Part shown: positions 1-62,111 of the stretch, one piece after another
How positions within the stretch are numbered: position 1 is the stretch's first letter
Layout of the letters: each line of letters starts with the position of its first letter
Assembly (NCBI RefSeq): GCF_001677475.2
Contig: NZ_CP015229.1
Origin: Escherichia coli
GTDB lineage: Bacteria; Pseudomonadota; Gammaproteobacteria; Enterobacterales; Enterobacteriaceae
Strand: one strand, 5' to 3'
Length of the DNA stretch: 64,000 bases
The notes under the pieces: generated by a model
Database searches by the model: none
What the model saw: only the letters and a program-made list of their open reading frames with translations
Told to the model about the DNA's origin: nothing
Made by a program: the position numbers and the translations under genes

Positions 1-227
<227 letters not shown>

Positions 228-356
228 TTACCCGATTCTACGAGTTGTCATTTGTTACCGGTCAGTCTACACATTTCAGATGCTGCGTTAAAAAACCCAA
301 GTACTTCAAGTAGCACATCGTCATCAACACCCAGCCCCAAGATACGGTGATAAAAT

Positions 357-1424
357 TCAAGCCTTAAGAGGCTTTGTGTATGTTCGTGTAATCCATCCAG
401 TAATAAACTCGTCCCCTGATTTAACCTGCACGAAAAGCCATTGGCGATCTTTTTTATCTAAAACAGCCACTATAGTATTTTTGCCAATGCATTCAATCAC
501 CTCACTATTTATAGAAGGACTGACGTGTAATCTTACGTTCTCACCAGTTATAAAACGAAAACCATTGAGATCTTCCCAACTAATTTCTTTGTTTTCTTTA
601 ATTAATTGTTGTTTTGATATTGGTTTATCCTCAAACAGAGATATAAAATATGATTCTGCCTTGTGTATTCCCAGCAAGGTTTTCTCTTTTCCGTAATCAA
701 TAAAAGCACCAAACACAACTTGAGAAAATATAACCATTAGTAACCATTGCAGTGGATAAGGAAGCTCTTTAAATGAATCAACAAACTTTGAGCTAGGTTT
801 ATTTAATCCTTTATTTTGAACATTACTTTTGGTGTGTGATGTTTCAGTAGCACCTTCAGCATAAGCCTGCGCAATAGATGAAATCCCCTGCTCTATTATT
901 TGATGTAATGAAGCATTTCTTGTTCTAGCATAGTGATCTAGTACTTTCTTTATGTCTTGGCTTACATCTGTTTTATAACTTGCACTTTGTTGTAATTCTT
1001 TAAGTATCGCTTGCATGTTATTTAAACCAGCTTGCTTATTAAGCACCTCAAGCTGTTTTCGTAATGGCATAGCTATTTCGGCCTGTTTCCTTAGCATTTG
1101 AATATATCTATTTGCGTCATGAGGGAAAAGAGCCTGAGTCTGTTTCTGTAAAATCGCGATATGTTCACGATACTTGCTGCCTATTCCAGCCAAGTTCGGC
1201 ATACTAGCCAATTGTTTTCGAAGAGAGTTACTAATTACAGCTTGTCTATTCAATCTTGTCATATTTTGAAAAGAATGTTTTTCTATTCCTAATTGTTTTT
1301 GCAAGATCGCTACGTGATCTTTGTATGATGGAATGAGCACTGACTGTTTATACAGTAACTTCAACTCATTAGAATTAGTAATTTTTGTCATATTATTCCA
1401 TTTATATAATAGAATATTACGCAA
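357..1424 (-). CDS. hypothetical membrane protein: KQ-rich repeats, one TM segment, C-terminal SH3b-like domain
   Basis: 355 aa ORF; repeated (H)IAILQKQ / LRKQ motifs; hydrophobic stretch LPYPLQWLLMVIFSQVVFGAF; C-terminal NVRLHVSPS...GWITRTY resembles bacterial SH3; AT-rich codon usage. Confidence 0.5.
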   Translation of the reverse strand: MRNILLYKWNNMTKITNSNELKLLYKQSVLIPSYKDHVAILQKQLGIEKHSFQNMTRLNRQAVISNSLRKQLASMPNLAGIGSKYREHIAILQKQTQALFPHDANRYIQMLRKQAEIAMPLRKQLEVLNKQAGLNNMQAILKELQQSASYKTDVSQDIKKVLDHYARTRNASLHQIIEQGISSIAQAYAEGATETSHTKSNVQNKGLNKPSSKFVDSFKELPYPLQWLLMVIFSQVVFGAFIDYGKEKTLLGIHKAESYFISLFEDKPISKQQLIKENKEISWEDLNGFRFITGENVRLHVSPSINSEVIECIGKNTIVAVLDKKDRQWLFVQVKSGDEFITGWITRTYTKPLKA

Positions 1425-1465
1425 CCAATGTTTTATTGATTGCGTTAATCTTTAACACAGAAAGA

Positions 1466-1942
1466 TCATTTGCCTCGTTTAATACATCCATCCATTTTGG
1501 CTTGTTGATACAACTTACTTAGCCCAGAAAGAGGGAATGTAGCAATTTTTTCATTATCAACATAAGCATCAATCATATTAGCATTTGAATCTGCTGCATC
1601 TTGCCAAAAGGCATACCACCAAGAATCTCCAACCATTGATCCAAGATTGCTAAAAGGATATTGCTCACCATCTATAGTTAATACTATTTTATTCTTGTCA
1701 GCATTATACTCTTTTTTATTATTCGACGAACTTAGCAACAAGCCTAAACTACCTGCACTATCTGGTGAACCATACATGAATCCCATATCACATAAAAAAC
1801 TTATCTTATCACCATTATGATTATGGATTGTATATTCTCTCCCCCCTCTCTCTTCAATTACATTCCATTGTAGAGGATCAATTTTTGCAAATGTTCCTGC
1901 TGAAACTAACGATACAAATAATAAAAACCATCTCATATTCAT
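1466..1942 (-). CDS. hypothetical secreted protein
   Basis: 158 aa ORF; N-terminal signal-peptide-like MNMRWFLLFVSLVSAGTFA; AT-rich. Confidence 0.5.
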   Translation of the reverse strand: MNMRWFLLFVSLVSAGTFAKIDPLQWNVIEERGGREYTIHNHNGDKISFLCDMGFMYGSPDSAGSLGLLLSSSNNKKEYNADKNKIVLTIDGEQYPFSNLGSMVGDSWWYAFWQDAADSNANMIDAYVDNEKIATFPLSGLSKLYQQAKMDGCIKRGK

Positions 1943-1964
1943 TCTTTTCGCTTCTTATCTGTAA

Positions 1965-2315
1965 TTATTCTGCAATATCATTTGCCCATTGCACGGCAGC
2001 AAAATGAGTACCCAAACCACTCAGGAAAGCAATTACCCCCAAAACAATACTTGCTGCTGTTGATTCAAACAAAGTACCAATACTATAGCCAATAGCTCCC
2101 CATACTAAGCTAAATACAATCATCAATGGTATTGCCAGAAATTTTATTCTTAAACTAAAAATCAGTCCAAGAAAAGAACCGCCAAAGGCCCACCATGATT
2201 TAGACATTAAACCTATCAGTATTGACAGAATTCCTATTTCAATAAAGAGAATATTAGATTGCTCTTCATTGAATTTCGCATTTGTTACACCTTTACGAAC
2301 ATGTTCAGATGACAT
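1965..2315 (-). CDS. hypothetical small integral membrane protein
   Basis: 116 aa ORF with several hydrophobic helices; first gene of the minus-strand low-GC cassette. Confidence 0.45.
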   Translation of the reverse strand: MSSEHVRKGVTNAKFNEEQSNILFIEIGILSILIGLMSKSWWAFGGSFLGLIFSLRIKFLAIPLMIVFSLVWGAIGYSIGTLFESTAASIVLGVIAFLSGLGTHFAAVQWANDIAE

Positions 2316-2461
2316 GATTAACTATCTCCTGCCACAGATAAAACGCCTTAAAATAACATTTTGTAGCATAAAGTTTCACCATGCAATGGTCAAAATCTTT
2401 GACCCATATCAATTAAACTCATACATTTTAGTTACCAGGGAAATAATTTACATGGTTACAA

Positions 2462-2478
2462 GTTGCTCTAATTATTTT
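2462..2478. promoter_or_regulatory. C1 repressor operator-like site (14/17 to ATTGCTCTAATAAATTT)
   Basis: gttgctctaattatttt in the divergent intergenic region between the cassette and the c4/icd/ant module. Confidence 0.4.
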
Positions 2479-2549
2479 ATTTTTTTAGCTTCATATGCTA
2501 CATTAACTTGCTTGCGTGCTAATGCATTTTCGGTTTATCCTAAACAGGC

Positions 2550-2627
2550 ATCTTAGTAAAATGGATGCCGGGATTGGAACCCCGGATAATGCAAAAGGCG
2601 ACACAGACGCCAAAAGCGTCTTTTTTT
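2550..2627 (+). ncRNA. c4: c4-type antisense RNA candidate (immI); ends approximate
   Basis: hairpin ccggg-attggaac-cccgg (2568-2585) then gacgc-caaaa-gcgtc + T7 terminator (2606-2627); loop complementary to gttccaa at 2730-2736 in the icd leader; block conserved with second copy at 50709-50811. Confidence 0.4.
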
Positions 2628-2812
2628 GTGTCATGCCATCGCACAGCCATACGTAGCACATAGCTCCGAGATCAATGGTAGTGCTGGCTGGGCTGCCGAA
2701 AGGCAGGCCGGTTCCCTTTTGCGCCGGTAGTTCCAACCCAGTCAGTGCTACCGCCATTGAGATTGGAACCTCACGCGGTAGCTCCTTAAATTAGCAAAAG
2801 GAGGCTGCCATT

Positions 2813-5934: not shown

Positions 5935-6082
5935 TATACATACTTTCAACACTTCTAGTTTGCCATGAGGCAAACTCATAGGCGTCTTGGTAAGAGGACA
6001 CAGTTGCCAAAACTGGACGTCCCATTATTGCAATTAATAAACAACTAACGGACAATTCTACCTAACAATAAGTGGAGTTAAC

Positions 6083-7251: not shown

Positions 7252-7416
7252 AAAGCTGAACCCGACACATATTACTATGTATCGGGTTCGATCGCTCTTT
7301 CTACACATGGTAGATGAGTAAGGCAAATCTAACCGATCTACTTTAGCTTTTCAATAGCTAGCTATAACTTTCCGCACATATTCTTCTGATAATTACGGGA
7401 GAGCGGTTGGGTTTTC

Positions 7417-7713
7417 TCATGCTTTTCTGCGCAGAGAAGCACACTTATTCAGCAATAATAAATGCAATTCTTTGTTATCACTAAGTATTTCTACACACCA
7501 ATATCGTAACGTGTTCACTTCAAGTGTAGCCAGCACCTTATGTCGAAAAGCCCCCTCCCCTACACATAACGATGCCTGACATTCTGCTAAGGCACATAAC
7601 CATGTATTGGCATCATAGAGAATCCAATAATGCTCATCTGAAATAGTTATGCATCCAATTATTTCGAATCTTCTTTCTATCGTCTCAGGAGAGTATGAAA
7701 AATCAATTTCCAT
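7417..7713 (-). CDS. hypothetical protein
   Basis: 98 aa ORF between hairpin 7261-7290 and terminator 7752-7782; weak. Confidence 0.3.
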   Translation of the reverse strand: MEIDFSYSPETIERRFEIIGCITISDEHYWILYDANTWLCALAECQASLCVGEGAFRHKVLATLEVNTLRYWCVEILSDNKELHLLLLNKCASLRRKA

Positions 7714-7751
7714 AACATGCTCAAAATCTATCTATACCGGCATAATTTAAG

Positions 7752-7782
7752 CACAAAAAAGCTCCCGTAGGAGCTTTAAAAT
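7752..7782 (-). terminator. intrinsic terminator ending the structural operon
   Basis: aaagctcc-cgta-ggagcttt hairpin with flanking A/T runs. Confidence 0.5.
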
Positions 7783-33993: not shown

Positions 33994-34239
33994 TTGGCAG
34001 AGCGTGTTGATGATGCAGAGCTGAGCATGAATCAGTTAGAAGCTCTCAAAGACATGGCCATCGATAACATCAGAAAGCAGGCACAGGTCGTGAGCCAGGT
34101 ATTTACAGGGAAGTGTCGTTACTGCAATGAATCGATTGAATCAGGCATTTATTGTGACGCTGAATGTGCGCAATGGCACAGGGAAGAGCAGGCTGCAAAA
34201 CAGCGTAAATATGGCATGCGACCGGCAGGATTTGACTGA
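33994..34239 (+). CDS. TraR/DksA-like C4 zinc-finger protein
   Basis: 81 aa; CRYCNESIESGIYCDAEC. Confidence 0.45.
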   Translation: MAERVDDAELSMNQLEALKDMAIDNIRKQAQVVSQVFTGKCRYCNESIESGIYCDAECAQWHREEQAAKQRKYGMRPAGFD

Positions 34240-34330
34240 TTATGTTGCGCTTTACTGAGGAAGAGTATTAGACGTCAACTAGTTTTGCCGACTCGCGCCA
34301 ACTATACTGGCCGCACCCTTCAGGGCGACA

Positions 34331-35086
34331 TCAAGTCGCGCTTGTTACTGCCTTCGCTGTCTTTTTCCTGTAGCTTTCCCCTTTCAGTTCGAACATATAT
34401 CCGTGATGGAGCAGCCTGTCTGCCGCAGCCACCGCCATAGTCTCATCCACGAAGATGCTGCCCCACATGCTGAACGGATGGTTACTGGTTATCACCAGGC
34501 TCCCACGTTCATAGCGATGCGCTATTAACTCGAACAGCACACCCGTTTCGGCACTATCGCGTTTGACATAGCCAAGATCATCCACCACTATCACCCGGTA
34601 GCGATCCAGTTTCAGTAGCAGCTCATTCAGTTTCAACTGAGCTCTGGCTTTACGTAGTTCCTGCAACAGCTCTCCTGCGCTGTAGAACCGGGCCCGGTAG
34701 CCCTGACCTACTACGCCATCCACGATCGCTGCCGCCAGATGGCTTTTCCCCAACCCGCTGGCTCCGAACAGCAGAACGTTTTCTCCTGCATCAACCCAGT
34801 CTGTCGTTTCACAGAGTTGCCGGAACTGAGCTCCATTCAGTTCCGGCACCTGACTGAAGTCGTATTCGCTCAGCGTTTTGGCAACTGGCAACCGGGCCTC
34901 CTTTTTATAACGACGCAGTTTTTCACTCTCGCGCCACAGGAGTTCTTCATTGCATAGCGTCAGAAGATAGCGCGATGGTGTCCAGCCTTCTGCCAGCGCT
35001 CGTTTTTCCAGAGCGTGCCATTCAGCTCCAACTCGTGTCAGGCGTAGTTTACGCAGGCTATGTTCAAGGTGATGGATATTGCTCAC
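34331..35086 (-). CDS. istB: IS21-family helper ATPase IstB
   Basis: 251 aa; Walker A GASGLGKSHLAAA. Confidence 0.85.
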   Translation of the reverse strand: MSNIHHLEHSLRKLRLTRVGAEWHALEKRALAEGWTPSRYLLTLCNEELLWRESEKLRRYKKEARLPVAKTLSEYDFSQVPELNGAQFRQLCETTDWVDAGENVLLFGASGLGKSHLAAAIVDGVVGQGYRARFYSAGELLQELRKARAQLKLNELLLKLDRYRVIVVDDLGYVKRDSAETGVLFELIAHRYERGSLVITSNHPFSMWGSIFVDETMAVAAADRLLHHGYMFELKGESYRKKTAKAVTSAT

Positions 35087-36635
35087 TGCGAACCTCCCTT
35101 GCCACGCAGTAGTTGCTCATAACTGCTCAGGTTATGCTGTATCACATTGACTACCGGCAACGCCTTTTCTTTTATACCCAGGAAGCGCATCAGCCGGTGC
35201 AGATCCACGTTTCCCGGGGTATTCAGCATCTGCTCCATACCTTTTGCCACGACTGAGATATCGTCGTATCCTGCAGCCAGTTTCAGGGCATGTACCATCA
35301 GCCTTCCTGCCATATCGGGCTCCAGATGATTACATAAGCGACGCCACAGCCTCCGCCATTCATCGTCCGGCAGGATGTCATTTCTCAGCGTTGCATGGCA
35401 GAACGCACCGGGCTTTTTTGCCAGACTGTCGATCACATGTCGGAAGTCGATACGACGGGCCCGCGTCTTCCCTTTTTCTGGTCTGACGCGAGGGCAGCTC
35501 ATGACCTCGCTGCTGCCAACGTAACAGCTCAGACGATCGTCCCATAACCTGACCCGTAACAGTTGACCTACAAGCCGGGAAGGTACGCTGTAGACGACGT
35601 GCTTCACATTGATGGTACTGCTGCGACTAACCCTCACAGTCAGCTCATCATAGTCAGCACTGCGACGAAGCGGCAGCGGTTTCAGATGAAGACGTTCTTC
35701 CTTGACCAGATCCTGATTGTTACGGTTGTGCCGCATAACCTGCTGAGTGATGAAGGCCTGATATTCTTCTATGGTGCTGAAGTCGTTACTGCCCCGCAGT
35801 ATCAGCGCCTGACAGATACGCCTTTTCAGATGTCCGTGGGCACTTTCAACCGAGCCATTTTCGTGGCCCCGACCGGCATTATTGTGTACGCCCTGCATTC
35901 CGTAGTGCTGACAGAGAGTAGCATAACGCTCAGTCAGCTCGCGGCGTCCATTCCGTAGTGCTGACAGAGAGTAGCATAACGCTCAGTCAGCTCGCGGCGT
36001 CCATCTTCGCCCTGTTGTTTCCATGCTGCCCTCAGGCTGTCCGTTTTATGTTCTACCGGCACTCCGCCCAGTTGTCCGAGGGCTTCCTGCAGGCCTTCAG
36101 CCAGAGCAGAGAAGCTCTCACCACCCAGAACAACCCGCATCCAGCTCCAGTGGCTCCATTCCAGACGGAAGTGATACAACTTATGCGCCAACAACTTACC
36201 GGCGATGGTGACAACTACACCTTTCAGTTCAGTAAAGTCCGACAGGCCTCGCAGGCCGGGCTGATGTTGCTGGCGGAACATGACCTCCTGCTCTGTACCA
36301 TACTGTAGTTTCCATTCGCGAACCCGCCGTTGCATTGTTCTTCGAAGGCTGTTGGGGTACTGGCCGGGATATTTATCCTGTAGCATCTCCAGTAGAGTTG
36401 TTGGTGTCAGAGCCGGCCTCTCTTTCAACAGAGGAACAAGCATGCTGTCCCACACAGCTTCCAGAGGATCTTTGCGTGTGCGCCAGTGCCGAACACTGTT
36501 TTTTGCCCACTCTCCTTTTTCGATCCGACGACCAGAACGGACTGAGATACCAGCCTTCATGGCCGAGATATGCTGAGTTATACCTTTCTTACGCTGAGTC
36601 ATATAGTAACTGACCTGAGAAGTATTGAGCGTCAC
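35083..36635 (-). pseudogene. istA: IS21-family transposase IstA, frameshifted by a 53-bp tandem duplication
   Basis: N-terminal HTH ORF (36635-35934) and C-terminal catalytic ORF (35898-35083) separated by an exact 53-bp direct duplication. Confidence 0.75.
35896..36004. repeat. exact 53-bp tandem duplication inside istA
   Basis: 35899-35951 identical to 35952-36004 (tccgtagtgctgacagagagtagcataacgctcagtcagctcgcggcgtccat). Confidence 0.9.
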
Positions 36636-37452
36636 GCCATTTCCTGTTGGATCATGTAAATGACACTCAGGTTACAAAACCGGCCAGAATAATCGGCGCC
36701 AGGCGGACTGAGTTATTGTCGTCTCATAGAAGAGTTTCAGGCTTTTAGTGAGCGTCGAAATAAGGGGCGGTCCAGGCCAAAAACCAAAAAGGATCCATTC
36801 TTATCGCTTGCGCCGGTAAAAGAAGTTTCTCCACATGCGAAGGCACTTGCAGCACTGGCAAAGAACCCAGACCTGCGCGACGGAAATTGCGAGCACTTCG
36901 AGCAGGTTTTCATTTTTGATTACTTCGAACGCAAGCACCCTGACATCTATGAGCTGTTGCATGCAACGCCTAACGGAGGGAAACGTTCAAAAGCAACCGC
37001 CGGGAAAATGAAGGCTGAAGGGCAGAAAAAAGGTTATCCGGACATGAGTCTCGATAAAGCATGCGGTATTTATCACGGCATGCGAATTGAGCTTAAAGAA
37101 CCAAATGGTAAAGCCCCGACGAAAGAGCAGATCGCCTGGATGCGCAGGCTTAGAGAGGAAGGTTACTACGTCGTTCTTGCGTATGGTGCAGAACAAGCGA
37201 TAACCGCCATCCTGGAATACATGAGCCTTAAAAAGGGTGAGGCTATTGAGCATGTATTGAACGGTGACAAGTGGTTGTACGCTACATGAAATAATAAATT
37301 AATTAGTGCATATGTGTTCTTTGATACAGCGCACATTAACATCGGGAGAATAATCGTGTCATCCAAGGCTAATTATGAATCGCTGGCATCGATCATGCCG
37401 CGTAATGAACAGGAAGCAGATGCTGTAGTGGACCCGGTAATCGCTGAAATGA

Positions 37453-38115
37453 ATGCTCGCCTGGAGGCTGAATTTGCAGCTGAGAATGAACATACCACCC
37501 AGGGCGACTAGGACTGTTTTTTGTGTCGGTAGCGGTCCGTCACTCACTCGTGAGGACTGTGCTGCTATAGAAAAAACTGGCTGTTCAATCATCGCGGTTA
37601 ACAATTCCTGGCAGATGTTCGATGACATTTATGCCTTATACGCCGGTGATTTGTCATGGTGGAAGCAATACGGTTCCACCATACCGGGAGGGAGGTTCCG
37701 CAAAGTGACAGCCAACCTGGCGGCGGCGAAATCATTTTCGTTGGAGTACAGGCGATATTGTGGACCGGCGGAAGGGGTAAATAGCGGCGCGCAGGCTATC
37801 AGTCTGGCTGCTGAATCAGGGGCTGAAGTAGTGGTATTAGTCGGCTATGACTGTTCTCTGCAAAACGGCCTTCATTGGCATGGCGCGCACCCTCAAGCCC
37901 TACGGAATCCAACGCAGGTGTCTATTTCAAAATGGCAACAGCAGTTCCTGGATACCCGCAAAAAACACGCAGATTTACATATTTTGAATGCAAGTAGGAG
38001 CAGTGCAATTCAATGTTTCCCAAGAATAAATTTAGAGGCAGTGATCGCGTTATTATCGTCGGCAGTGGCCCAAGCGCCGCAAACTTTGTTGCGCCGCGCG
38101 GAGTGCCGATTATAG
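37453..38115 (+). CDS. Rossmann-like protein with GSGPS motif (MptE/DUF115-like)
   Basis: 220 aa; VFCVGSGPS...AVNN...GYD; 3' end overlaps next paralog. Confidence 0.5.
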   Translation: MLAWRLNLQLRMNIPPRATRTVFCVGSGPSLTREDCAAIEKTGCSIIAVNNSWQMFDDIYALYAGDLSWWKQYGSTIPGGRFRKVTANLAAAKSFSLEYRRYCGPAEGVNSGAQAISLAAESGAEVVVLVGYDCSLQNGLHWHGAHPQALRNPTQVSISKWQQQFLDTRKKHADLHILNASRSSAIQCFPRINLEAVIALLSSAVAQAPQTLLRRAECRL

Positions 38116-38639
38116 CGGTCAATGGGGCCATCGACTGGCTTAACCGCGCTTCTTATTTTTTCACCCTTGATCCATCCCCAGACAATATGCGGCGCGTTGG
38201 TCGTGGCCGCCGTCGCCGTGGTGTTTGTTATTGCATGGCACTACCCGATGTTAAAGAACGTGAAGTCAGAGACGGCGTTCTGTGCTTCCGTCGTGTGGCT
38301 GAACGTGGCATGGAGCCAAAAAATACGAATTCTCCCGAGTGGTGGGCGTGGCGCTGGTCCGCACATTTCGGACTTTGCGAAGATGAGAATGAAATTGCCA
38401 GCGGCAATAGTGCATATGGCGCTCTGAACCTGGCTTTCCATATCGGATTCAAACATGTCGCCCTGGTGGGCGTTGACGCTACACAAGAACCACGCGTTCA
38501 CTCCGGCGGCACGCCAAAAAATCTAAGTCACCTGCCTTTGTTATTCCAGTCTGCGCGTGAACAGATTGACGTTGTTTCATGCGGGAAAATGGGAGGTATT
38601 CCGCAGATGACTCTTAAAGAATGGCTGAAGAATACATGA
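38013..38639 (+). CDS. Rossmann-like protein with GSGPS motif, paralog of previous
   Basis: 208 aa; IIVGSGPS...AVNG...GVD. Confidence 0.5.
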
Positions 38640-39313
38640 TGGCACCCACAATTTATCACCGTATCGACGGTACCAAATACAGGAATGTCTGGGTTGTTGG
38701 TGATCTGCATGGTTGCTACACCAGACTGATGTCCGAACTCCATCGTGTGGATTTTGACCCGGCGCAGGATTTACTGATATCGGTCGGCGACCTTATCGAT
38801 CGCGGTACTGAAAATGTCGAATGTCTGGAACTATTGCAGATGCCCTGGTTCAGGGCAGTAATGGGGAACCATGAGCGGTTGATGCTCGATGCGTTAAGTC
38901 CTGATGGCAACGTGAATAACTGGCTAATGAATGGCGGACAATGGTTCTTCATGCTGGACACTGATCAGGAAATATTAGCCAAGGCGCTGGTGGAGTTGGT
39001 AAGACGACTGCCCTATATCATTGAGTTGAACACCGGGCAAGAAACTATCGTTATAGCCCATGCCGACTATCCGGATAATGAATATCAATTCGGTAAGGAG
39101 GTGCCGCTTTTCAACGTTGTCTGGGCGCGCGAGCGTATCAGTGATTCGATGGATGATATTGGTGGCGAAATTTCGGGCGCAGATCGTTTTATCTTTGGTC
39201 ACACTCCGGTGAAAATCCCGAAGACATTCTGGAATCAGCATTATATCGACACTGGTGCCGTATTTTGCGGAAACCTGACATTGATGAAAGTGAAAGGTGA
39301 TGGTGCAGCATGA
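38621..39313 (+). CDS. ppp: serine/threonine protein phosphatase (metallophosphatase, lambda PP-like)
   Basis: 230 aa; GDLHG, GDLIDRG, GNHE motifs. Confidence 0.8.
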
Positions 39314-40011
39314 AGATTGCTTTAGTTCTTCGCTCTGGTGGTGACTATAACGCTTCCGATGTGCAGTGGCTGGTTAATCAACTGCCAAAAGGCTATGAAA
39401 TTATTTGCCTGACAGACCTGAAGCGTTTACATGTACCTGGCGTCAAAGTTGTCCCATTGATCAACCAGTGGCAAAAGTGCCGTGGCTGGTGGGCGAAAAT
39501 CGAGTTGTTCCGACCGGATATAACCGATGATCTGTTCTATCTGGATTTGGACACGGTTATTGCCGGTGATATACGCCCAATCCTTGAGAATCCACCAACC
39601 AGCTTCACCATGCTTAGGGATTTTTACCATCCACAATATCGTGGTAGCGGTGCCCTGTGGATACCAAATAGTGTAAAAGCGCATATCTGGAGTTCATTCT
39701 GGCAAGATCCGGAAGGTTGGATTTCTCGTTGTGTCACTACTGAGTGCTGGGGTGATCAGGGGTTCTTACGGAAGGTTATGGGCGATGATACACCAGCATT
39801 TCAGGATCTGTATCCGGGATGGTTTGTAAGTTACAAGGCCGATGTTGTGGAACCTGGTTCAAAATATGCAAGCGCGCGTTACTCCAGGGGGAATGGGGCA
39901 TTACCAAAGGACTGCCGAATAATCTTTTTCCACGGCAAACCGCGACCTCGCGAAGTGTCAGAGGATTGGCTTCCCCTTATTAGCTCGTTTTTTGAGCTAG
40001 AATCAGAATAA
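39310..40011 (+). CDS. hypothetical protein with DxD motif (possible glycosyltransferase)
   Basis: 233 aa; [10 protein letters not shown]. Confidence 0.45.
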
Positions 40012-40012
40012 T

Positions 40013-40029
40013 ATTGCTCTAATAATTCC
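40013..40029. promoter_or_regulatory. C1 operator-like site, with inverted copy at 40063-40078
   Basis: attgctctaataattcc and tttttattagagcaat flank a terminator hairpin. Confidence 0.55.
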
Positions 40030-40038
40030 ATATTTTTA

Positions 40039-40068
40039 AAACGTGATGTACACTCATCACGTTTTTTA
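40039..40068. terminator. bidirectional intrinsic terminator
   Basis: aaaacgtgatg-tacactc-atcacgtttttt. Confidence 0.6.
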
Positions 40069-40312
40069 TTAGAGCAATCTGCAAGGTGCACTATGTGGCC
40101 ATTCCGACGGAAATATCACTACTGGCTGATCGCCTTTGTTACGCCGACCGGCGGTATCAGGCATGTCATCACCAGGTATCGCAACAAGAGGCTCACCTTA
40201 GCCAGAATTTTACAGGCTGCCATAGGTGAGGGGCTGGATACAAATTGCGTAGTCCTTCCACCTTCATACTTAGGAAAAATGACCGAAGAACAAGCTAATA
40301 CGGAACTTTGAA

Positions 40313-41575
40313 ATGAGCACTTCAGCACAAAACCAATCAATCGAAAATGTATCTATCCCTGACGTCCTGAATGCCGGTATCCCGGCCATTATCCAGAACA
40401 TCCGAGCCGCGCAACGCCGCGTTAGTTGTGATGACCTCACAGCGCGTTTTTTTGATAATGCGGTTCAGTCAGCGGAGATGCTTCACGCACAGCTTATTGA
40501 TGTTTATAACGCAGAAGCTGATAGCCATAACTCCCTGGTAGATGAAGCCGAAAATATGCAGTTGGATCTCGGCCTGAAGGGTAAAGAAATTGAAGAGCTT
40601 CATCTGCAAATTGAACATTTGAAACGCCAGCAACAGGATGCGATCGACGATGCGACGCATGACGCCAACCTGCGTGCTGATAATGCCGAACGTATAAGCA
40701 TTGAGCTGGAAACAAAACTCAATGAAATGACAGCGATGGTTGAACTGCGGAACTCACAGATTTCAACGCTAAAATCTCAATATAAAGAGATCATGAAACT
40801 TGATCCTTTTAACCTTGAGAAACGCTATAACAAAGCCAAAAGTGAGCGACAGGAACTGCGTAAGCAGGTCGCCGACCTTAACCAACAGCTCAAAAAGACT
40901 ATTAAAGATGCAAGTGAGGCGCGCGTGGCATTTGCTAATAAAAAAGCAGAGGTTACCGCGCTGGTTAATGAGAATGCCAAATTTGCGACGCTCAAGAAGG
41001 AAATGTATGGCATTACTGAGCGCCGTTTCCCTGCAAGCAAACTTCATCCGACGTTAGGGCAAATCTCCTTCTTCCCGCGCCTCCTGGCTTATGGGATCTC
41101 ATCGCCTAAAGAGTTCAATAACGAGCGTCCTTATATCGTTTCTAAGCTGGACTTTGCTTATCAGTTCTGCTGCGACATGGGCTATGCCATTGATATCCGA
41201 ATCAACGAATGGTTGATGCCAAACTTCCAGCCGTTGGCAATTTTCCGCGAGTTCCAGCCGGAAGGTTGGGTAGAGTTCTTCCATGAATTGATCTGTAAAG
41301 AGATGGAAAGCCGCCGCCCGGAACTGGTCCGTCGAGTTGAGTGGGCGCAAGAGGTTATGTTGGCAGATGCAGAGCTGCCGTTCGAACCGGAATTCATTGA
41401 TGATCTGGCAACTAAAGGACTGCATACCCTGTTTGATGTGGTTACCCGCCGTCATGAGCAGTTGGTTGTCGAATTGGGTTTAGAGGAAACTGCGGCAAGA
41501 AGACTTCTCGATGTTTGCTATGCACGTAGCGATGCATGGGAAAAAGAGAACGGCGGCACTATTTACGTTCGCTGA
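40313..41575 (+). CDS. hypothetical coiled-coil protein
   Basis: 420 aa ORF. Confidence 0.5.
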   Translation: MSTSAQNQSIENVSIPDVLNAGIPAIIQNIRAAQRRVSCDDLTARFFDNAVQSAEMLHAQLIDVYNAEADSHNSLVDEAENMQLDLGLKGKEIEELHLQIEHLKRQQQDAIDDATHDANLRADNAERISIELETKLNEMTAMVELRNSQISTLKSQYKEIMKLDPFNLEKRYNKAKSERQELRKQVADLNQQLKKTIKDASEARVAFANKKAEVTALVNENAKFATLKKEMYGITERRFPASKLHPTLGQISFFPRLLAYGISSPKEFNNERPYIVSKLDFAYQFCCDMGYAIDIRINEWLMPNFQPLAIFREFQPEGWVEFFHELICKEMESRRPELVRRVEWAQEVMLADAELPFEPEFIDDLATKGLHTLFDVVTRRHEQLVVELGLEETAARRLLDVCYARSDAWEKENGGTIYVR

Positions 41576-41599
41576 TAGTTACAGTGTCACTTTTAATGC

Positions 41600-41632
41600 T
41601 GGTGGAGTGCGCCCACCAGCATTTTTTTCGTC
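41600..41632 (+). terminator. intrinsic terminator
   Basis: gctggtgg-agtgcg-cccaccagc then atttttttc. Confidence 0.6.
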
Positions 41633-41647
41633 CAATGAGGAGGGCAT

Positions 41648-42154
41648 TTGAGTATTTTCAATAAACACGCACACCAGGAACGTCCGTACATCGTCATAGT
41701 AGATATTGATGGGACGATATCAGAGGCAACGGAAGACAGGCTGCATTTACTTCCACCACCAGGTAAAGGTGCATTAACAGAGCACTGGAACGAGTTTAAC
41801 CTTGCCTGTGAAACTGATGCTCCCATTACTCCAGTTATTGATATGGTGCGCCAGTTATCCAGCATTTACACGGTCTGGTTTGTAACCGGGCGCTGTGAGA
41901 TCGCAAGGGATAAAACACGAGCCTGGCTGCGAAAGTACGTAACAAACGGGGATGAGCCTTTGCTATCTATGCGTCCTGCCACCGATGACAGAAATGACGG
42001 TCCAGCAAAGATTGATCTCCTGAAGAAAATTGGTCTAAGTAAAATTGCGTTCGCGCTGGAAGATAAGATTGAAGTGGCGCGTGTTTTCAGGAGTCACGGC
42101 GTACTTACATTAATGGTTAGGGAGTATGAAAATGCGCTTCTTCATCAACAATAA
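41648..42154 (+). CDS. HAD-superfamily phosphatase-like protein
   Basis: 168 aa; IVIVDIDGTI motif. Confidence 0.5.
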   Translation: MSIFNKHAHQERPYIVIVDIDGTISEATEDRLHLLPPPGKGALTEHWNEFNLACETDAPITPVIDMVRQLSSIYTVWFVTGRCEIARDKTRAWLRKYVTNGDEPLLSMRPATDDRNDGPAKIDLLKKIGLSKIAFALEDKIEVARVFRSHGVLTLMVREYENALLHQQ

Positions 42155-42163
42155 TTGCTCTAA

Positions 42164-42180
42164 TAAATGTTGATTTTTAA
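42164..42180. promoter_or_regulatory. C1 operator-like site
   Basis: attgctctaataaatgt. Confidence 0.55.
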
Positions 42181-42348
42181 AACAGAGAAAGTGAAAATAA
42201 AAACATGCCGCAAGGCGCGGCATGTATCCAATCAATCACAGGAGCTGAAAATATGAACACGGCATTCAAAATCATTATGGCCGCGATCTATTTCTGGCTG
42301 TTCTCTATCACTTTTGGCGGCATCGTCGCGCATGGGTAAGGGGGATGC

Positions 42349-43077
42349 ATGAAAGGCGAAGTGAAAGAGCGCGGCATGATTTTCAACGATGAGATGGTCC
42401 GGGCCATCCTCGAAGGAAGGAAAACGCAGACGCGGCGGATAATGAAAAATCAGCCTGCGGAAGTTGGTCCAGAAGCACCAGTGATGGTTAGAAAAATTGG
42501 TGCAGGTTTTCAGTGGTACGGGGCTGATGGTGTAAGCAGTGTTTTCAATTGCCCCTTTGGTATCGTCGGCGATCGAATTTGGGTTCGTGAAACATGGGCG
42601 ATATTAGGCAATGAGGATGGTTGCAGTGTGGACTGGAACGACAACCCTTGTCGTGGCGATGAGAAGAACGCAGCAAGGATTTATCGGGCCAGTTGTGAGC
42701 AAAAGCCTGGTGATTACGGCTTATGGTCGATACCCGATGATGCCGACTGGAAACCTCACACTGTGAATGAAAAGTTTGATGGTGGGTGGCGTCCATCAAT
42801 TCACATGCCGCGATGGGCATCACGCATTCTGTTGGAAATTACCAACGTGCGCGTTGAGCGGTTGAACGATATCAGCGAATGCGATGCAGGGGCTGAGGGC
42901 GTTCCGCCTGCTGGAAGTTTACTTCCTGATTACCCGGGAACATTCCTTACTCCCAATGGGGACTTCGCAATGGCCAAGGTTGCGTTCCAGCGTCTGTGGG
43001 AGTCCATCTACGGCGAAGAAAGCTGGAACGCTAATCCCTGGGTGTGGGTAATCGAGTTTAAGCGCATTCAGGAATAA
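42349..43077 (+). CDS. ASCH/PUA-like domain protein (start may be internal Met)
   Basis: 242 aa; MIFNDEMVRAILEGRKTQTRR motif typical of phage ASCH proteins as recalled. Confidence 0.45.
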   Translation: MKGEVKERGMIFNDEMVRAILEGRKTQTRRIMKNQPAEVGPEAPVMVRKIGAGFQWYGADGVSSVFNCPFGIVGDRIWVRETWAILGNEDGCSVDWNDNPCRGDEKNAARIYRASCEQKPGDYGLWSIPDDADWKPHTVNEKFDGGWRPSIHMPRWASRILLEITNVRVERLNDISECDAGAEGVPPAGSLLPDYPGTFLTPNGDFAMAKVAFQRLWESIYGEESWNANPWVWVIEFKRIQE

Positions 43078-57114: not shown

Positions 57115-57783
57115 GTGGCTTTTCTTTTTGTAGGGGGAGCTATGGATAAGAAAATATGCGTTGTTTCGATGAACGTCGGCAAACCGGCGTCAATGACTGC
57201 TGCATGGATCAACAACGAGCTGATAATGGCTGAGCGGACCAGCTACCCTGAACGCCGCCGCGACATGGAACTCCAGCTGCTGCGCGAATTGCGAGAAAAA
57301 GAGGAAAAGGGTTTTATCGTGCTGGTGGAAGAGGAAAACAGCTTTATTACTGGTCGAGTTGGCCAGCGTGTAAGGTTGCGCGATCCCTTCATGAACGGCA
57401 GGCCGGTACTGATTGAAGCAATGCAGATTTACAAGGAGCTGGAACGCCAGAAAGCGATCAAGTTACCACGCAAGGAGTCCGGCAAGTACATTCTCCATCA
57501 AAGCATCTTCGATTCCGAACACGACAAAAAAGGCGATGAATTTTTCAACATCAACTGGAGCGAAATAACCACAGAGCACGTTCTGACGCTACTATGTTGC
57601 TTTGCAACGGAATACAACAACGTGGTGAGCGCGCACTACATTCAGGCAATGGCTGGTAGGATTAATACGCAGCGTGAGCCCTCGCTGATAGAGCCATTCA
57701 TCAATATTATTAATGCTACTCAACGAATGGGAGAAACACGTGTGCCGCAAGGCTTACTCACAGGTAAATATGATTACCTTTAA
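57115..57783 (+). CDS. hypothetical protein (P1 mat position; start may be internal)
   Basis: 222 aa ORF following ref. Confidence 0.45.
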   Translation: MAFLFVGGAMDKKICVVSMNVGKPASMTAAWINNELIMAERTSYPERRRDMELQLLRELREKEEKGFIVLVEEENSFITGRVGQRVRLRDPFMNGRPVLIEAMQIYKELERQKAIKLPRKESGKYILHQSIFDSEHDKKGDEFFNINWSEITTEHVLTLLCCFATEYNNVVSAHYIQAMAGRINTQREPSLIEPFINIINATQRMGETRVPQGLLTGKYDYL

Positions 57784-58267
57784 TTTCAAACTTATTACAC
57801 CAAGCAGCTAATTACAAATTACTACTTAAGGTAACCAAAAATTATTATTTGCAAAACACATAAAAAACAAAAACAAAACAATAAAAAACACAAATTAACA
57901 TCAACACCAAATGAAGACATTTTACTAACCAAGCCTCAGCATCTATTACCAGTAGATATAAAGGTGATAAATGGAGGAATTAATAGCACGCATATTAAGC
58001 TGGTTGTTTCATAATCAATAATTGAATAATAATTCAATGCGTCTCCATGATTTTTATGTAACGATGCACATTAATCGCATATATTTGTTGAATGATTTTC
58101 ATTTGAAATTTATTTAAAGTGAATAATTGATTTATTCAACCTCCTTATTTATTATTTTTCCGATTTTGTGCAGCGAAATGCATGAATATTTGCGAGAACA
58201 TAATCACACAGTAAACTAAAACATCTGTTATTATAAATCCGGATAATGTATAAACTCGAGGTTATCT

Positions 58268-61200
58268 ATGTCACTTTCTGTTTATAATAATAAAAAAAAT
58301 AGCTCTTCAGGGGGGAACTCTCCTCGCTTGACCCTACTGGCAGCTATAATCGGCGCATTATTTTCAAATGCTTACGCTTCAACAACTGCTATTAAAATTG
58401 ATAATGATGTTCAAGTTAATAAAGATAACCTCGATATTAATACGGGCAGTAATACAGGAAGTAATGGATATGCGATCTCTGTCACAAATTCAGGTGAACT
58501 AACTACCGAAGGTACAGTGACGTTATCTACAGAAGGTGATAAGGCAAACGGAGTTAATATATCCAGTGGGTCTAAAATTAACTCTCAAGGTGGGATTACA
58601 ATAACCACAAAAGGCAAAAACGCCTCTGGCATTTCACTTGATAATAATTCTTCAATGACTATCGCTAACGGTATGTCAATTACAACAAGTGGGATAAACG
58701 CTACAGGGATTAATGTTGACAAATCTTCACTAACTGTTGAACAAGGTGATATTAACACATCTGGTGTAAATGCTAGTGGTGTTTCTATTTTAAATGGAGG
58801 CCAAGCCAGTTTAAATAAAGTTAACATTACCACATCTGGAGATAATGCCAGAGGTATTGTTAGCTCTGGCATAAATAGCAAAATAGTAATTAGCGACTCA
58901 ACCATTACCACTCTGGGGGATAAAAAACCATCACAAGCATGGGGAGCTCGTGGCATATCTGCCGAAAACAACGGTTATGTTTCACTAACAAATACGCAGA
59001 TTAAAACTGATGGAACAGGGGCTTGGGGAGTATCTGCATCGTCAGCTGGCTCAGCTGAATTAGCTGATGTTCATATTTCCACTTCAGGCCAAAATGGCTA
59101 TGGTTTACGTGCAGATGGCAATAACTCTAGTATATCTGTATCTAAAGGACTCCAGGTAACCACTTCTGGCAAACAAGCTCATGCCGTAACTGCCTCTAAT
59201 AATGGGAATATAAATCTTGGAGTAAATGCATCTCTTGAAACATCAGGGACGCAGGCTAATACCATCCATATCACCGGTGGTAATGGTGGTATAATAACGG
59301 GTGATAGTATCTCAATAAAAACAAATGGCACATCAGCCAAAGGTATATATGTTACGGCTTTAAATCCCTCAGACTCAGCACCTGATTCACGCGTAGAGCT
59401 GACGGGAACATCAACAATCGCCACATTAGGTGATCAGTCAATAGGTGTGTGGGGGCATGGTAAAGTAGCTGATATTAGCTTCGAGCAAATAGCTATTAAT
59501 ACAGCCGGTACTGACTCATACGGTATAAATGCACAAAATGAAGCCACTGTTAATGCCCATACAGCCCAGATTATTACTAAGGGGCTAAACTCATATGGAG
59601 CAACAGCAAATTCAGCTGCAAAAATTACACTTGGTTCTGGTTCATCGATTACAACAAGCGGTGATTATGCTCATGGAATATGGGTCAGTGATGACAATAC
59701 AGTTATTAGTGGCAATAATGCATCCATTCATGTATCAGGAAAAGAGGCTGACTCTGTAGTCGCTGCCAATAATGCAAAAGTTGAGCTTACCCAAGAGAAT
59801 GGGGTGATGATTAGCGAAACTAGATATAACTTTAATGCTAATGGTGGTGCTATTTCCGCCACGTTAGATGGCAGCCAAATAAAGAATAACGGCACATTCA
59901 TCTTCTCAACCAGTAATGATGCCGGTGTGGGAGGGAACGTTGATGTTACAGTCAAGAATACTTCCTTTAATGGCGATATTCGCGCTGATAGTAACAGTAT
60001 TGCCAATCTTTCATTAGAAAATTCCAACTGGACTGGAACCGCGTATAATGGTGGCATTGTTAATTTAGCTAAAAACAGCATCTGGAATATGGTTAGCGAT
60101 TCGGATGTTGCTCATCTTAATAATAATGGCTCTATATATTTGGGCAGCGATGCAAAAAACACTTTAACAATTAATGGTGATTATACTGGCGAAAATGGCT
60201 ATATCTACTTTTCAGGCGTTCTTGGTGACGACACATCTCCAATCGATAAGTTGGTTGTAAAAGGAAATACAGAGGGTAAAACCTTTGTTTCCGTAAACAA
60301 CGTTGGTGGTATTGGGGCACAAACACTCAATGGCATCAACATTATCCAGGTTGATGGTCAATCTAACGGTGACTTTGTACAAGTTGGCCGAATTGCGGCT
60401 GGTGCTTATGATTACACTCTTGGGCGGGGGCAAGGCGATAAAAATGGCAACTGGTACCTAACTAGTGGCAAACAACCTGAGGATCCAACTCCGAACCCGG
60501 ACCCGGAGCCAAATCCGACCCCAACACCAGGTGACAATGATCTTCGCCCAGAAGCTGGTAGCTATACGGCAAACATTGCTGCTGCAAATACTATGTTCGT
60601 GACTCGCCTACACGAACGTCAGGGGCAAATGCAGTATACCGATGTGATTACCGGTGAATTGAAAACTACAAGCATGTGGATGCGTCATGAGGGTGGACAC
60701 AATCGCTGGCGCGACGGAAGCAACCAGTTAAAAACACAAAGCAACCGTTATGTTATGCAACTGGGCGGCGATATAGCACAGTGGGGTTGGAATAAAACGG
60801 ATCGCTGGCATCTTGGCTTAATGGCCGGATACGGTAATGACCACAATAATACAGAATCTGTGCGCACAGGATATCGTTCAAAAGGTAGTGTGAATGGTTA
60901 CAGCACTGGGCTGTATGCCACCTGGTATGCCAATGATGAAACACATAACGGGGCTTACCTAGACTCTTGGGCACAGTACAGCTGGTTTGATAACTATGTT
61001 AAAGGTGATGGATTGCAGAGTGAATCCTGGAAATCAAAAGGACTTACTGCATCACTGGAAACTGGTTATACCTGGAAGGCTGGTGAGTTTACGGGCAGCC
61101 AAGGTGGTTTGAATGAGTGGTATGTCCAGCCTCAGGCTCAGGTCATCTGGATGGGTGTTAAAGCGGACGAACATCGCGAAAGCAACGGTACCCGTGTTGA

Positions 61201-61522
61201 AAGCACCGGAGATGGTAATGTCCGTACCCGTCTGGGCGTGAAAACATGGATTAAAAGCCACAGTCGTATAGATGAAGGCAAATCCCGGGAATTCAGCCCA
61301 TTTGTGGAAGTGAACTGGCTGCATAACACCCGTGATTTTGGTACTCGTATGAATGGTGTGACGGTACATCAGGACGGTGCCCGTAATATCGGAGAAATAA
61401 AAACCGGTGTTGAGGGGCAGATAAATTCCAGACTGAACCTGTGGGGGAATGTAGGTGTTCAAGTCGGTGACAAAGGGTATAACGACACATCTGCAATGTT
61501 GGGTGTGAAGTATACCTTCTGA
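58268..61522 (+). CDS. type Va autotransporter (adhesin-like passenger plus C-terminal beta-barrel)
   Basis: 1084 aa; extended signal peptide; repetitive G/N/S/T-rich beta-helix-like passenger; Pro-rich linker PNPDPEPNPTPTPG; C-terminus ends KYTF; AT-rich upstream region. Confidence 0.85.
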   Translation: MSLSVYNNKKNSSSGGNSPRLTLLAAIIGALFSNAYASTTAIKIDNDVQVNKDNLDINTGSNTGSNGYAISVTNSGELTTEGTVTLSTEGDKANGVNISSGSKINSQGGITITTKGKNASGISLDNNSSMTIANGMSITTSGINATGINVDKSSLTVEQGDINTSGVNASGVSILNGGQASLNKVNITTSGDNARGIVSSGINSKIVISDSTITTLGDKKPSQAWGARGISAENNGYVSLTNTQIKTDGTGAWGVSASSAGSAELADVHISTSGQNGYGLRADGNNSSISVSKGLQVTTSGKQAHAVTASNNGNINLGVNASLETSGTQANTIHITGGNGGIITGDSISIKTNGTSAKGIYVTALNPSDSAPDSRVELTGTSTIATLGDQSIGVWGHGKVADISFEQIAINTAGTDSYGINAQNEATVNAHTAQIITKGLNSYGATANSAAKITLGSGSSITTSGDYAHGIWVSDDNTVISGNNASIHVSGKEADSVVAANNAKVELTQENGVMISETRYNFNANGGAISATLDGSQIKNNGTFIFSTSNDAGVGGNVDVTVKNTSFNGDIRADSNSIANLSLENSNWTGTAYNGGIVNLAKNSIWNMVSDSDVAHLNNNGSIYLGSDAKNTLTINGDYTGENGYIYFSGVLGDDTSPIDKLVVKGNTEGKTFVSVNNVGGIGAQTLNGINIIQVDGQSNGDFVQVGRIAAGAYDYTLGRGQGDKNGNWYLTSGKQPEDPTPNPDPEPNPTPTPGDNDLRPEAGSYTANIAAANTMFVTRLHERQGQMQYTDVITGELKTTSMWMRHEGGHNRWRDGSNQLKTQSNRYVMQLGGDIAQWGWNKTDRWHLGLMAGYGNDHNNTESVRTGYRSKGSVNGYSTGLYATWYANDETHNGAYLDSWAQYSWFDNYVKGDGLQSESWKSKGLTASLETGYTWKAGEFTGSQGGLNEWYVQPQAQVIWMGVKADEHRESNGTRVESTGDGNVRTRLGVKTWIKSHSRIDEGKSREFSPFVEVNWLHNTRDFGTRMNGVTVHQDGARNIGEIKTGVEGQINSRLNLWGNVGVQVGDKGYNDTSAMLGVKYTF

Positions 61523-61626
61523 ACTAAATAGCATCTAAGAACAAAGAGCAGAACCATGGATGGACTGCTCTTTACCATGACACCGATATTCCATTATTTC
61601 TATCTTTTGATATATATATTAACAAA

Positions 61627-61971
61627 ATGAATAATAAAAAAGAAACTTGTTATATAAAAGCACATATAGAAAGGCATGATATTACAGTTCATGTGTGGAT
61701 ATCTGCATCATTGACAGAAGCTGAATGCAGCGTACTTGAGTTATTATTAAAGGGATATAATATCACTCAGATATCAAAGTCCCGATTTCGCAGCATTAAA
61801 ACAGTTTCTTTTCAGAAATACAAAATATACAAAAAGTTAGGAATTCATAATGACATCACATTCTGGGTAGATATTTCATTATCCCCTTATGTGAGAATAA
61901 AGTTCTCCGGTAAAGATAGTACGTTCAAGAAATGTATATTACCATGTCCTAATTACATCTCGATGCAGTGA
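61627..61971 (+). CDS. small LuxR/GerE-type HTH protein
   Basis: 114 aa; LTEAECSVLELLLKGYNITQISK; AT-rich. Confidence 0.5.
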   Translation: MNNKKETCYIKAHIERHDITVHVWISASLTEAECSVLELLLKGYNITQISKSRFRSIKTVSFQKYKIYKKLGIHNDITFWVDISLSPYVRIKFSGKDSTFKKCILPCPNYISMQ

Positions 61972-62111
61972 TAACTGCACTCAAACAATATCTACCTATA
62001 CAATATAAATACTCCATGACCAAGAAACGCATGAAGATATGGAACTTCACAAGTTTGCTCTTCATGGAGTATGGCTATCAGAGGGGCCAGTAACCGCAAC
62101 CTTTAAGTATA

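Follow-up and report, generated by a model that had tools for sequence, protein, structure and literature searches.

How a nuclease-like gene of a phage-plasmid came to be cut in two by an insertion sequence (IS) whose own transposase gene is also split, and what each of the two lesions would have cost, are the questions raised by this locus. It lies in a 64,000-nucleotide stretch of Escherichia coli DNA (contig NZ_CP015229.1), here called the window, which belongs to a P1-like phage-plasmid (Punavirus). A sequence-only reading had proposed that an IS21-family element inserted into a VRR-NUC gene and was then inactivated by a tandem duplication. The analysis arrived at the same history with the partners named, namely insertion of ISEc10 into pmgM with a 6-bp target-site duplication and a separate 53-bp duplication that broke istA, and this account is very probably correct as a whole.

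Target gene and insertion site

The interrupted gene is located between pmgL and pmgN, as pmgM is in P1. The gene pmgL (33994..34239, plus strand) is intact and lies upstream in the same late operon according to the ORF list, the P1 annotation and the collinearity with pE2-2. Its stop codon is found 2 nt ahead of the pmgM ATG, and the P1 annotation of pmgL and pmgM includes the late promoter LPpmgL. The 5' stump of pmgM (34242..34265, plus strand) consists of codons 1 to 8 (MLRFTEEE) and is the same as the pmgM starts of P1, RCS47 and pE2-2. When the stump was translated into the IS, a tyrosine and then a TAG codon followed, giving the 9-residue peptide MLRFTEEEY. The 3' part (36729..37289, plus strand) extends from the repeated codons 7 and 8 to codon 192 and the stop codon. 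It carries the VRR-NUC core with the E61/E64 helix, D111 and E127-x-K129, and its frame has no start codon before TTG 36957 (codon 83).

ISEc10 is inserted after codon 8 of pmgM. The left junction reads ACTGAGGAAGAG followed by TATTAGACG, and the right junction CGTCTCATA followed by GAAGAGTTTCAG, so that GAAGAG stands on both sides of the element, at 34260..34265 (codons 7 and 8) and at 36729..36734. The uninterrupted genes of P1, RCS47 and pE2-2 read ACTGAGGAAGAGTTTCAGG with one GAAGAG only. The comparison with related phage-plasmids lacking the IS, for which the sequence-only reading had called, thus showed the empty site, and the junction coordinates and the 6-bp target duplication were reproduced. 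Two fixed positions would share the same 6 bp by chance in about 1 of 4096 trials; because of this expectation and because the empty site was seen directly, chance is excluded. Target-site duplications of the IS21 family are 4-8 bp long, and duplications of 5-7 bp flanked seven of eight independent ISEc10 copies (6 bp in four).

Deletion of 34266-36728 and one GAAGAG restored the continuous ORF that had been predicted from ATG 34242. This ORF is 579 nt long, as is P1 pmgM, and the reconstructed PmgM differs by two amino acids from that of P1 and by one from that of RCS47 (one or two across P1, RCS47 and pE2-2). The joined flanks aligned in a single piece in every plasmid and phage record listed, and the empty site was present at 80% or more of the query in 487 P1-like plasmids and 18 phages. 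A 14-kb block is collinear with the P1-like plasmid pE2-2, with the IS as the sole break.

The claim that the target encodes a VRR-NUC protein was borne out by comparison with PDB entry 4QBL ('VRR-NUC'), a phage VRR-NUC Holliday-junction resolvase, which matched PmgM residues 77-179 (E = 8.1e-17, 64.9 bits). The putative catalytic D...(D/E)-x-K motif of the family is present in PmgM, whose GYPD (D111) and RIELK (E127, K129) align with GYPD and RIE(L/I)K of 4QBL. PmgM differs from 4QBL in having some 50 additional residues at its N-terminus, and its gene is interrupted here. Many phage proteins annotated as VRR-NUC also matched PmgM in tblastn, the distant ones aligning from about residue 48-64. 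The Pfam model PF08774 (VRR_NUC) matched residues 100-160 with 21.2 bits, below its gathering score of 23.8.

The confinement of this subthreshold Pfam match to residues 100-160 and the lack of distant homologues for PmgM residues 1-47 could be taken to mean that the IS disrupts no gene, the VRR-NUC protein starting at TTG 36957 and the upstream ATG ORF being fortuitous. Such a reading is scarcely credible. The curated pmgM coding sequences of P1, RCS47 and RefSeq are 579 nt long and begin at an ATG 2 nt after the pmgL stop codon, 4QBL needs about 25 residues upstream of PmgM residue 77, and the homologues begin at residues 48-64. Since the homologues and 4QBL extend upstream, a start at the TTG would truncate the conserved domain and remove the E61/E64 helix. 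A natural start at the internal TTG was rejected because of the curated coding sequences and the upstream-reaching homology. The gene does not naturally start at this codon, and the reading of pmgM from the ATG survived.

Identity and ends of the element

The element (34266..36728, minus strand) is 2463 bp long, which corresponds to the canonical 2410 bp of ISEc10 plus the 53-bp duplication, and istA and istB are oriented opposite to pmgM. It is the known E. coli element ISEc10. Copies annotated in RefSeq/PGAP as 'IS21-like element ISEc10 family' were 99.7-99.8% identical to it in nucleotide sequence, and by the ISfinder convention more than about 95% identity denotes the same IS. Over 2410 bp, identity to the copies of CFT073, RM9088 and OkiPb01695 was 99.8%; with the duplication removed, 4-6 nt differed from ISEc10 of strains OkiPb01695 and RM9088. 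The repaired IstA scored 226.4 bits with NCBIfam NF033546 transpos_IS21 (cut-off 160), and IstB 266.7 bits with NF038214 IS21_help_AAA (cut-off 200). With both proteins above the IS21 cut-offs, the earlier assignment to the IS21 family was upheld and could be narrowed to ISEc10.

At least 80% of the element was present in 345 plasmid records annotated as 'IS21-like element ISEc10 family'. BLAST against complete genomes gave 546 E. coli records with the element, in which the alignments ended at window positions 34266 and 36728; the usual boundaries (167..2629 of the query) agree with these ends. The termini TATTAGACG...CGTCTCATA were found in all nine ISEc10 copies compared, i.e. the window copy and eight independent copies of 2409-2410 bp. 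Common to the reference copies and the window copy are the termini, the istA/istB layout, the 4-nt overlap of the two genes and target-site duplications of 5-7 bp, whereas only the window copy has the 53-bp istA duplication and IstB L226.

The terminal inverted repeats were located by end alignment as an inverted-repeat pair at 34266..34313 (istB-proximal, the right end in IS orientation) and 36681..36728 (istA-proximal, the left end). They are imperfect, 48 nt long and 71% complementary. Long imperfect terminal inverted repeats holding repeated IstA-binding blocks (L1/L2, R1/R2) are characteristic of the IS21 family, and two conserved blocks per end, TAT.AGACG.CAA and GCGCC.A.TAT.CTGGCCG, were recognized by eye as putative IstA-binding repeats. 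IS21-family termini have the form 5'-TG...CA-3' with a signature 3' CA (PMC10122671). The comparatively defined ends of ISEc10 read TA-TT.../...CA-TA and not plain TG...CA; CA is found 2 nt in from the istA-proximal terminus, and the corresponding position at the other end has AA. Unlike IS5376 and IS21, ISEc10 has an additional TA beyond the TG/CA-like dinucleotide of its termini. As there is no TA at the empty site, this outer TA moves together with the IS. Activity of ISEc10 in E. coli is documented by new insertions near lpp that appeared under selection (PMC7482066).

Duplication within istA

The istB gene (34331..35086, minus strand) is intact and encodes the 251-amino-acid helper AAA+ ATPase, as seen from the ORF, the NCBIfam score and Pfam IstB_IS21 (E = 7e-62). 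Its start overlaps the istA stop by 4 nt. One or two amino acids differ from reference IstB; among these, L226 is a private conservative change, the other copies compared having Ile.

The istA gene contains an exact tandem duplication at 35896..36004 with a period of 53 and about 2.1 (2.06) copies. TRF reported 100% matches and a score of 218 for 35896-36004, and an identity check confirmed that 35899-35951 and 35952-36004 are identical. The period-53 match overruns two units by 3 nt, which places the microhomology CAT at the borders of the duplicated unit. As 53 is no multiple of 3, istA is frameshifted, and this occurs after residue 229 of 499. The 5' ORF (35934..36635, minus strand; 233 amino acids) comprises IstA residues 1-229 and four out-of-frame residues (DAAS) before a stop; its GTG start is the RefSeq istA start in another ISEc10 copy. 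The 3' ORF (35083..35898, minus strand; 271 amino acids) corresponds to residues 229-499 in the repaired translation and is not preceded by a convincing ribosome-binding site. Removal of 53 bp restored a 499-amino-acid IstA that is 2-4 residues off the RefSeq proteins, in agreement with the proposed splitting of istA by this duplication.

The junction-to-junction segment was compared by BLAST with complete E. coli genomes and PLSDB, and exact patterns of the left junction and the duplication joint were searched in IMG/VR, JGI metagenomes and GTDB genomes. Neither the insertion nor the duplication was found in PLSDB, INPHARED, 5,426 complete E. coli genomes, IMG/VR, JGI metagenomes or GTDB, and no record with ISEc10 in pmgM was present in the E. 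coli genomes, PLSDB, IMG/VR, JGI metagenomes or GTDB. With a 90-nt query spanning the joint, no duplicated copy was detected in the 5,426 E. coli genomes; the sole 'full coverage' matches were two overlapping pieces on one 56-bp stretch and represent the unduplicated state. In an exact-protein look-up the 233- and 222-amino-acid N-terminal fragments of IstA were not on record, and the 271-amino-acid C-terminal fragment was called on three low-coverage metagenome contigs. These contigs were rejected as the same lesion, the duplication being absent and other small indels being present. The plasmid pe1-39_A, with ISEc10 among tail genes, was likewise rejected as the same phage-plasmid, as its flanks match neither P1 nor pE2-2. 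Both the insertion and the duplication appear to be private and recent, each resting on one sequence.

The joint is present in none of about 550 full-length ISEc10 copies of complete E. coli genomes and in no plasmid, phage, metagenome or GTDB contig searched, and the exact truncated IstA products are absent from the record. From this it might be argued that only the insertion is real, the 53-bp duplication being a sequencing or assembly artefact in an ordinary, intact and autonomous ISEc10. Absence elsewhere is, however, also expected of a recent private mutation. The two 53-bp units are identical and stand in unique, non-repetitive sequence far from the window ends, the 3-nt microhomology at their boundary is typical of genuine slippage duplications, and private lesions are common in IS copies (a frameshifted istB in copy L007, other istA indels in L016-L018). 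An artefact is thus unlikely.

Predicted activity of the element

IstA and IstB of ISEc10 belong to the same NCBIfam family as those of IS5376 and IS21 and have the same order of HTH-HTH, DDE and beta-barrel domains (PMC10122671, PMC11208146). IstA has 499 amino acids here compared with about 400 in IS5376 and is too divergent for phmmer to align it to the PDB chain; no match to PDB was obtained even at E = 10, so the DDE positions rest on motif and spacing. In IS5376 IstA the triad is D124, D187 and E233, the DDE domain covers residues 120-285 and the beta-barrel 300-355, and mutation of the triad abolishes integration (PMC10122671). By motif and spacing relative to this triad, and not by alignment, the catalytic residues of ISEc10 IstA were placed at putative D133, D199 and E246, with a D..D..E spacing of 66/47 versus 63/46 in IS5376. 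The 5' ORF holds the HTH region and the putative D133 and D199, and the 3' ORF the putative E246, the beta-barrel domain and the C-terminal region; Pfam Mu-transpos_C_2 matched at residues 311-366.

With this division the window copy is predicted to have lost transposase activity and is probably non-autonomous. As istB and both terminal repeats are intact, it could still be moved in trans by an intact ISEc10.

The same features bear on the order of the two events. A donor copy might have been duplicated first and the defective element then moved into pmgM by IstA acting in trans. Both terminal repeats and istB would permit this, and E. coli genomes are often rich in ISEc10 (up to 14 places per genome, 12 on one chromosome), so that helper copies are plausible. 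On the other hand, a transposing defective lineage should leave siblings, but no other ISEc10 copy with the duplication was found, and the window contains no second ISEc10. The reversed order is rather unlikely, and these observations suggest that the insertion came first and the duplication second.

Proposed history

ISEc10, with its DDE transposase IstA and AAA+ helper IstB, would have transposed into pmgM after codon 8, and repair of a short staggered cut typical of the family would have produced the GAAGAG duplication. PmgM would thereby have been reduced to a 9-residue peptide and the nuclease core left without a promoter-proximal start codon, and late transcription from LPpmgL would now have to traverse 2.46 kb of antisense IS. 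A scan for promoters and terminators (33800-37500) showed no convincing outward promoter to re-express the 3' part of pmgM, promoter-like sites being fewer than in shuffled sequences.

A separate event would have duplicated the 53-bp segment of istA, probably by replication slippage or a microhomology-mediated event between two CAT triplets. One polypeptide would then carry the HTH domains and both catalytic Asp residues, and the catalytic Glu would be encoded, together with the beta-barrel and the C-terminus, by a second ORF whose translation is improbable. No transposase would be made from this copy, which, having kept its ends and istB, may be a non-autonomous element movable by an intact ISEc10 in the same cell.

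The fitness cost to the phage is probably small. CRISPRi against pmgM (efficiency of plating 0.38) and its deletion showed that the gene is nonessential for lytic growth of P1 (PMC10695390), and in phage phi456 an IS1 has inserted independently into pmgM. The IS copies known from phages of the P1 type (IS1 and IS5 in P1, IS1 in pmgM of phi456) likewise are flanked by target-site duplications and lie in a lytically dispensable gene or region; in comparison with these, the IS of the window is of a different family and at a different position.

It is also conceivable, but highly improbable, that the split istA is not simply dead. If expressed, the 233-amino-acid N-terminal fragment, with both HTH domains and part of the tetramer interface, might bind ISEc10 ends or poison IstA tetramers and so act as a trans-dominant inhibitor of host ISEc10 copies, in the manner of IS1 InsA or the inhibitor protein of Tn5. 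In that case the phage-plasmid would be the carrier of an anti-transposition factor, and the loss of the PmgM resolvase could also push it towards a plasmid-only lifestyle.

The locus, with an IS insertion and a disrupting duplication, represents known kinds of event, implying no new mechanism or family, and it matters chiefly for annotation. The gene pmgM should be annotated as a pseudogene with a mobile element inserted in it, the two istA ORFs should be merged into a single frameshifted transposase gene, and the IS should be labelled ISEc10. As none of the other records searched contains the junction or the 53-bp joint, the two could be used to mark the lineage of this plasmid.

Identity and borders of the element

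The segment 34000-37600 was read and its ORFs were listed. At the left junction ACTGAGGAAGAG is followed by TATTAGACG, at the right junction CGTCTCATA by GAAGAGTTTCAG, and the two ends, 34266-34313 and 36681-36728, are imperfect inverted repeats of each other (48 nt, 71% complementary). When 34266-36728 was compared with PLSDB by BLAST, 345 records contained at least 80% of the element, the top match being 99.7% identical. The matches listed measured 2410 bp each in the record and aligned as two pieces because they lack a 53-bp duplication present in the window copy; their annotation was 'IS21-like element ISEc10 family transposase / helper ATPase IstB'. Complete E. coli genomes gave 546 records with 80% or more of the segment, and there the alignments usually ended at query positions 167 and 2629, corresponding to 34266 and 36728.

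For comparison of the ends, eight independent ISEc10 copies were fetched. All eight shared the termini TATTAGACG...CGTCTCATA; seven were 2410 bp long and one 2409 bp. Target duplications of 5, 6 or 7 bp, varying from copy to copy, flanked seven copies (6 bp in four of these), and none was found for the eighth, which adjoined another IS21-like element. The borders of the window copy and its 6-bp duplication GAAGAG (34260-34265 and 36729-36734) are therefore typical of ISEc10. Removal of one 53-bp unit yielded 2410 bp with 4-6 nt differences from the copies of OkiPb01695 and RM9088, encoding a stop-free IstA transposase of 499 aa and an IstB helper ATPase of 251 aa. Repaired IstA passed the NCBIfam IS21 transposase model (226 bits, cut-off 160) and contained a Mu-transposase-type beta-barrel at residues 311-366, while IstB passed IS21_help_AAA (267 bits, cut-off 200) and Pfam IstB_IS21. 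The sequence-only reading had proposed an IS21-family element, which proved to be ISEc10. A search for a second ISEc10 copy within the window found none.

All nine copies, including that of the window (34266-34274 and 36720-36728; L002-L009 in other records), end with TA-TTAGACG... and ...CGTCTCA-TA. The TG/CA dinucleotide usual in the IS21 family lies 2 nt inside one end, with TT/AA at the other. One copy (L003, plasmid pe1-39_A, NZ_AP040955, 1501-3923) was located among tail-protein genes with the 6-bp duplication GGCGTG. Its host is a different phage-like plasmid of 98 kb, and the flanks of the element there matched neither P1 nor the P1-like plasmid pE2-2.

The interrupted gene

As an empty-site query, both flanks were joined through one GAAGAG. 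At least 80% of this query was covered in 487 P1-like plasmids and 18 phages; it aligned in a single piece in the plasmid records listed (best 99.3% identical) and in the full-length phage matches, including RCS47, P1, P7 and SJ46. P1, RCS47 and pE2-2 are alike at the insertion site, CTGATTATGTTGCGCTTTACTGAGGAAGAGTTTCAGG, with one GAAGAG. The window is collinear with pE2-2 throughout except for mosaic accessory blocks, and in the 14-kb block 26318-43005 the IS is the only interruption.

The target is pmgM, in P1 a 579-nt CDS of the LPpmgL-driven late operon starting 2 nt past the pmgL stop and labelled as a VRR-NUC domain protein in RefSeq. The reconstructed gene of the window was exactly 579 nt long and undamaged apart from 1-2 amino-acid differences. 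PmgM matched structure 4QBL ('VRR-NUC', E = 8e-17) and shares its GYPD and RIE(L/I)K motifs (D111, E127 and K129); the Pfam VRR_NUC model alone scored slightly under threshold. The interruption of a VRR-NUC gene, read from the sequence alone, was thus borne out by this match and by the empty sites.

Interrupted by the element, the gene reads MLRFTEEEY and a stop from its 5' stump, and the only in-frame start codon left for the 3' part is TTG 36957 (codon 83). Distant phage VRR-NUC proteins begin to align at about residue 48-64 of PmgM, and the 4QBL chain extends about 25 residues N-terminally beyond the position aligned to residue 77. A start at this TTG would therefore cut the conserved domain, and the alternative that pmgM naturally begins there was rejected.

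The 53-bp duplication in istA

The units 35899-35951 and 35952-36004 were identical, as the sequence-only reading had stated, and Tandem Repeats Finder reported 35896-36004 (period 53, 2.1 copies, 100% matches, score 218). The identity runs 3 nt past two complete units; the unit therefore starts with CAT and originally had CAT directly after it, a microhomology. istA begins at GTG 36635 (minus strand), as in RefSeq, and its frame is shifted past residue 229 by the second unit. The first ORF (233 aa) ends with ...HYGM-DAAS-stop, and the second (271 aa) comprises IstA residues 229-499; its ATG has no adequate Shine-Dalgarno spacing by inspection. The splitting of istA by the duplication, as described in the sequence-only reading, was confirmed by the 499-aa frame regained on removing one unit.

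In IstA of IS5376 the triad is D124, D187 and E233, with a DDE domain at 120-285 and a beta-barrel at 300-355, and triad mutation abolishes integration (PMC10122671). Since a phmmer search for a PDB relative of ISEc10 IstA gave no match, we infer its triad from motif (LSDFTE, HKTD, NGSVE) and spacing as D133, D199 and E246 (spacing 66/47, versus 63/46 in IS5376). On this placement the frameshift would separate the Glu from the two Asp residues, leaving neither polypeptide with a complete active site. With both ends and istB intact and istA split, the copy should be non-autonomous yet movable by an intact ISEc10. ISEc10 is experimentally active in E. coli (PMC7482066), and copies are often numerous there, in up to 14 places per genome.

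Order of events

Contiguous cover of the junctions or the duplication was absent from complete E. coli genomes, PLSDB and INPHARED, and neither the left junction nor the duplication joint turned up when JGI metagenomes, GTDB genomes and IMG/VR were scanned for exact matches. The shortened N-terminal IstA products were not on record. The 271-aa product was called on three low-coverage ENA metagenome contigs (L016-L018), whose ISEc10 copies have other small indels in the istA 5' half and no duplication, which may reflect independent decay or assembly errors.

Because none of the other records searched carries them, insertion and duplication both look private and recent, which fits the undecayed pmgM halves. 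For the same reason this one assembly is the sole evidence for the duplication; its exactness, its internal position within unique sequence and the microhomology at its bounds favour a genuine slippage event. An already damaged ISEc10 copy may have been trans-mobilised into pmgM, placing the duplication first, but no sibling copy carries it, and insertion followed by duplication is the simpler order.

Other loci in the window

A bifunctional DNA methyltransferase resembling P1 dmt (20587-23844, plus strand, 1085 aa, C5 and N6 domains) contained an insert of about 340 aa, intein-like, directly past the GGTPC motif (especially 20821-21840), with Hint (residues 77-126) and LAGLIDADG homing-endonuclease (298-361) domains; these 1020 bp are missing from pE2-2. 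Also missing there is a 4.5-kb accessory block (57657-62111) encoding an autotransporter of 1084 aa (58268-61522, autochaperone AC_1 and beta-domain) and a small LuxR/GerE-type regulator (61627-61971), possibly adhesin or virulence cargo. A variable block (5929-7754), likewise not in pE2-2, encodes a DUF3800 protein (6083-6787), overlapped by a 159-aa ORF that has no match in Pfam.

Consequences for the phage-plasmid

The insertion is probably tolerated, because CRISPRi (efficiency of plating 0.38) and deletion show pmgM to be nonessential for the lytic growth of P1 (PMC10695390), phage phi456 (OR339795) carries an independent IS1 inside pmgM (1201-2336, equivalent to window ~37022), and P1 itself harbours IS1 and IS5. 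The phi456 IS1, a second IS in the same dispensable gene, has a rearrangement adjoining upstream. A modest cost through loss of the putative junction-resolving nuclease is possible, as is a polar effect on late transcription of pmgN-ppp downstream; against such an effect, a separate predicted promoter, PpmgN, is annotated there in P1. A consensus scan for an outward promoter in the IS able to re-express the pmgM 3' part gave none that was convincing.

The sequence-only reading was essentially correct in observation and interpretation. What it describes is the known element ISEc10, with a private frameshifting duplication, lodged in a P1 gene already known to be dispensable; it is of use in annotation and lineage tracing and does not represent novel biology.
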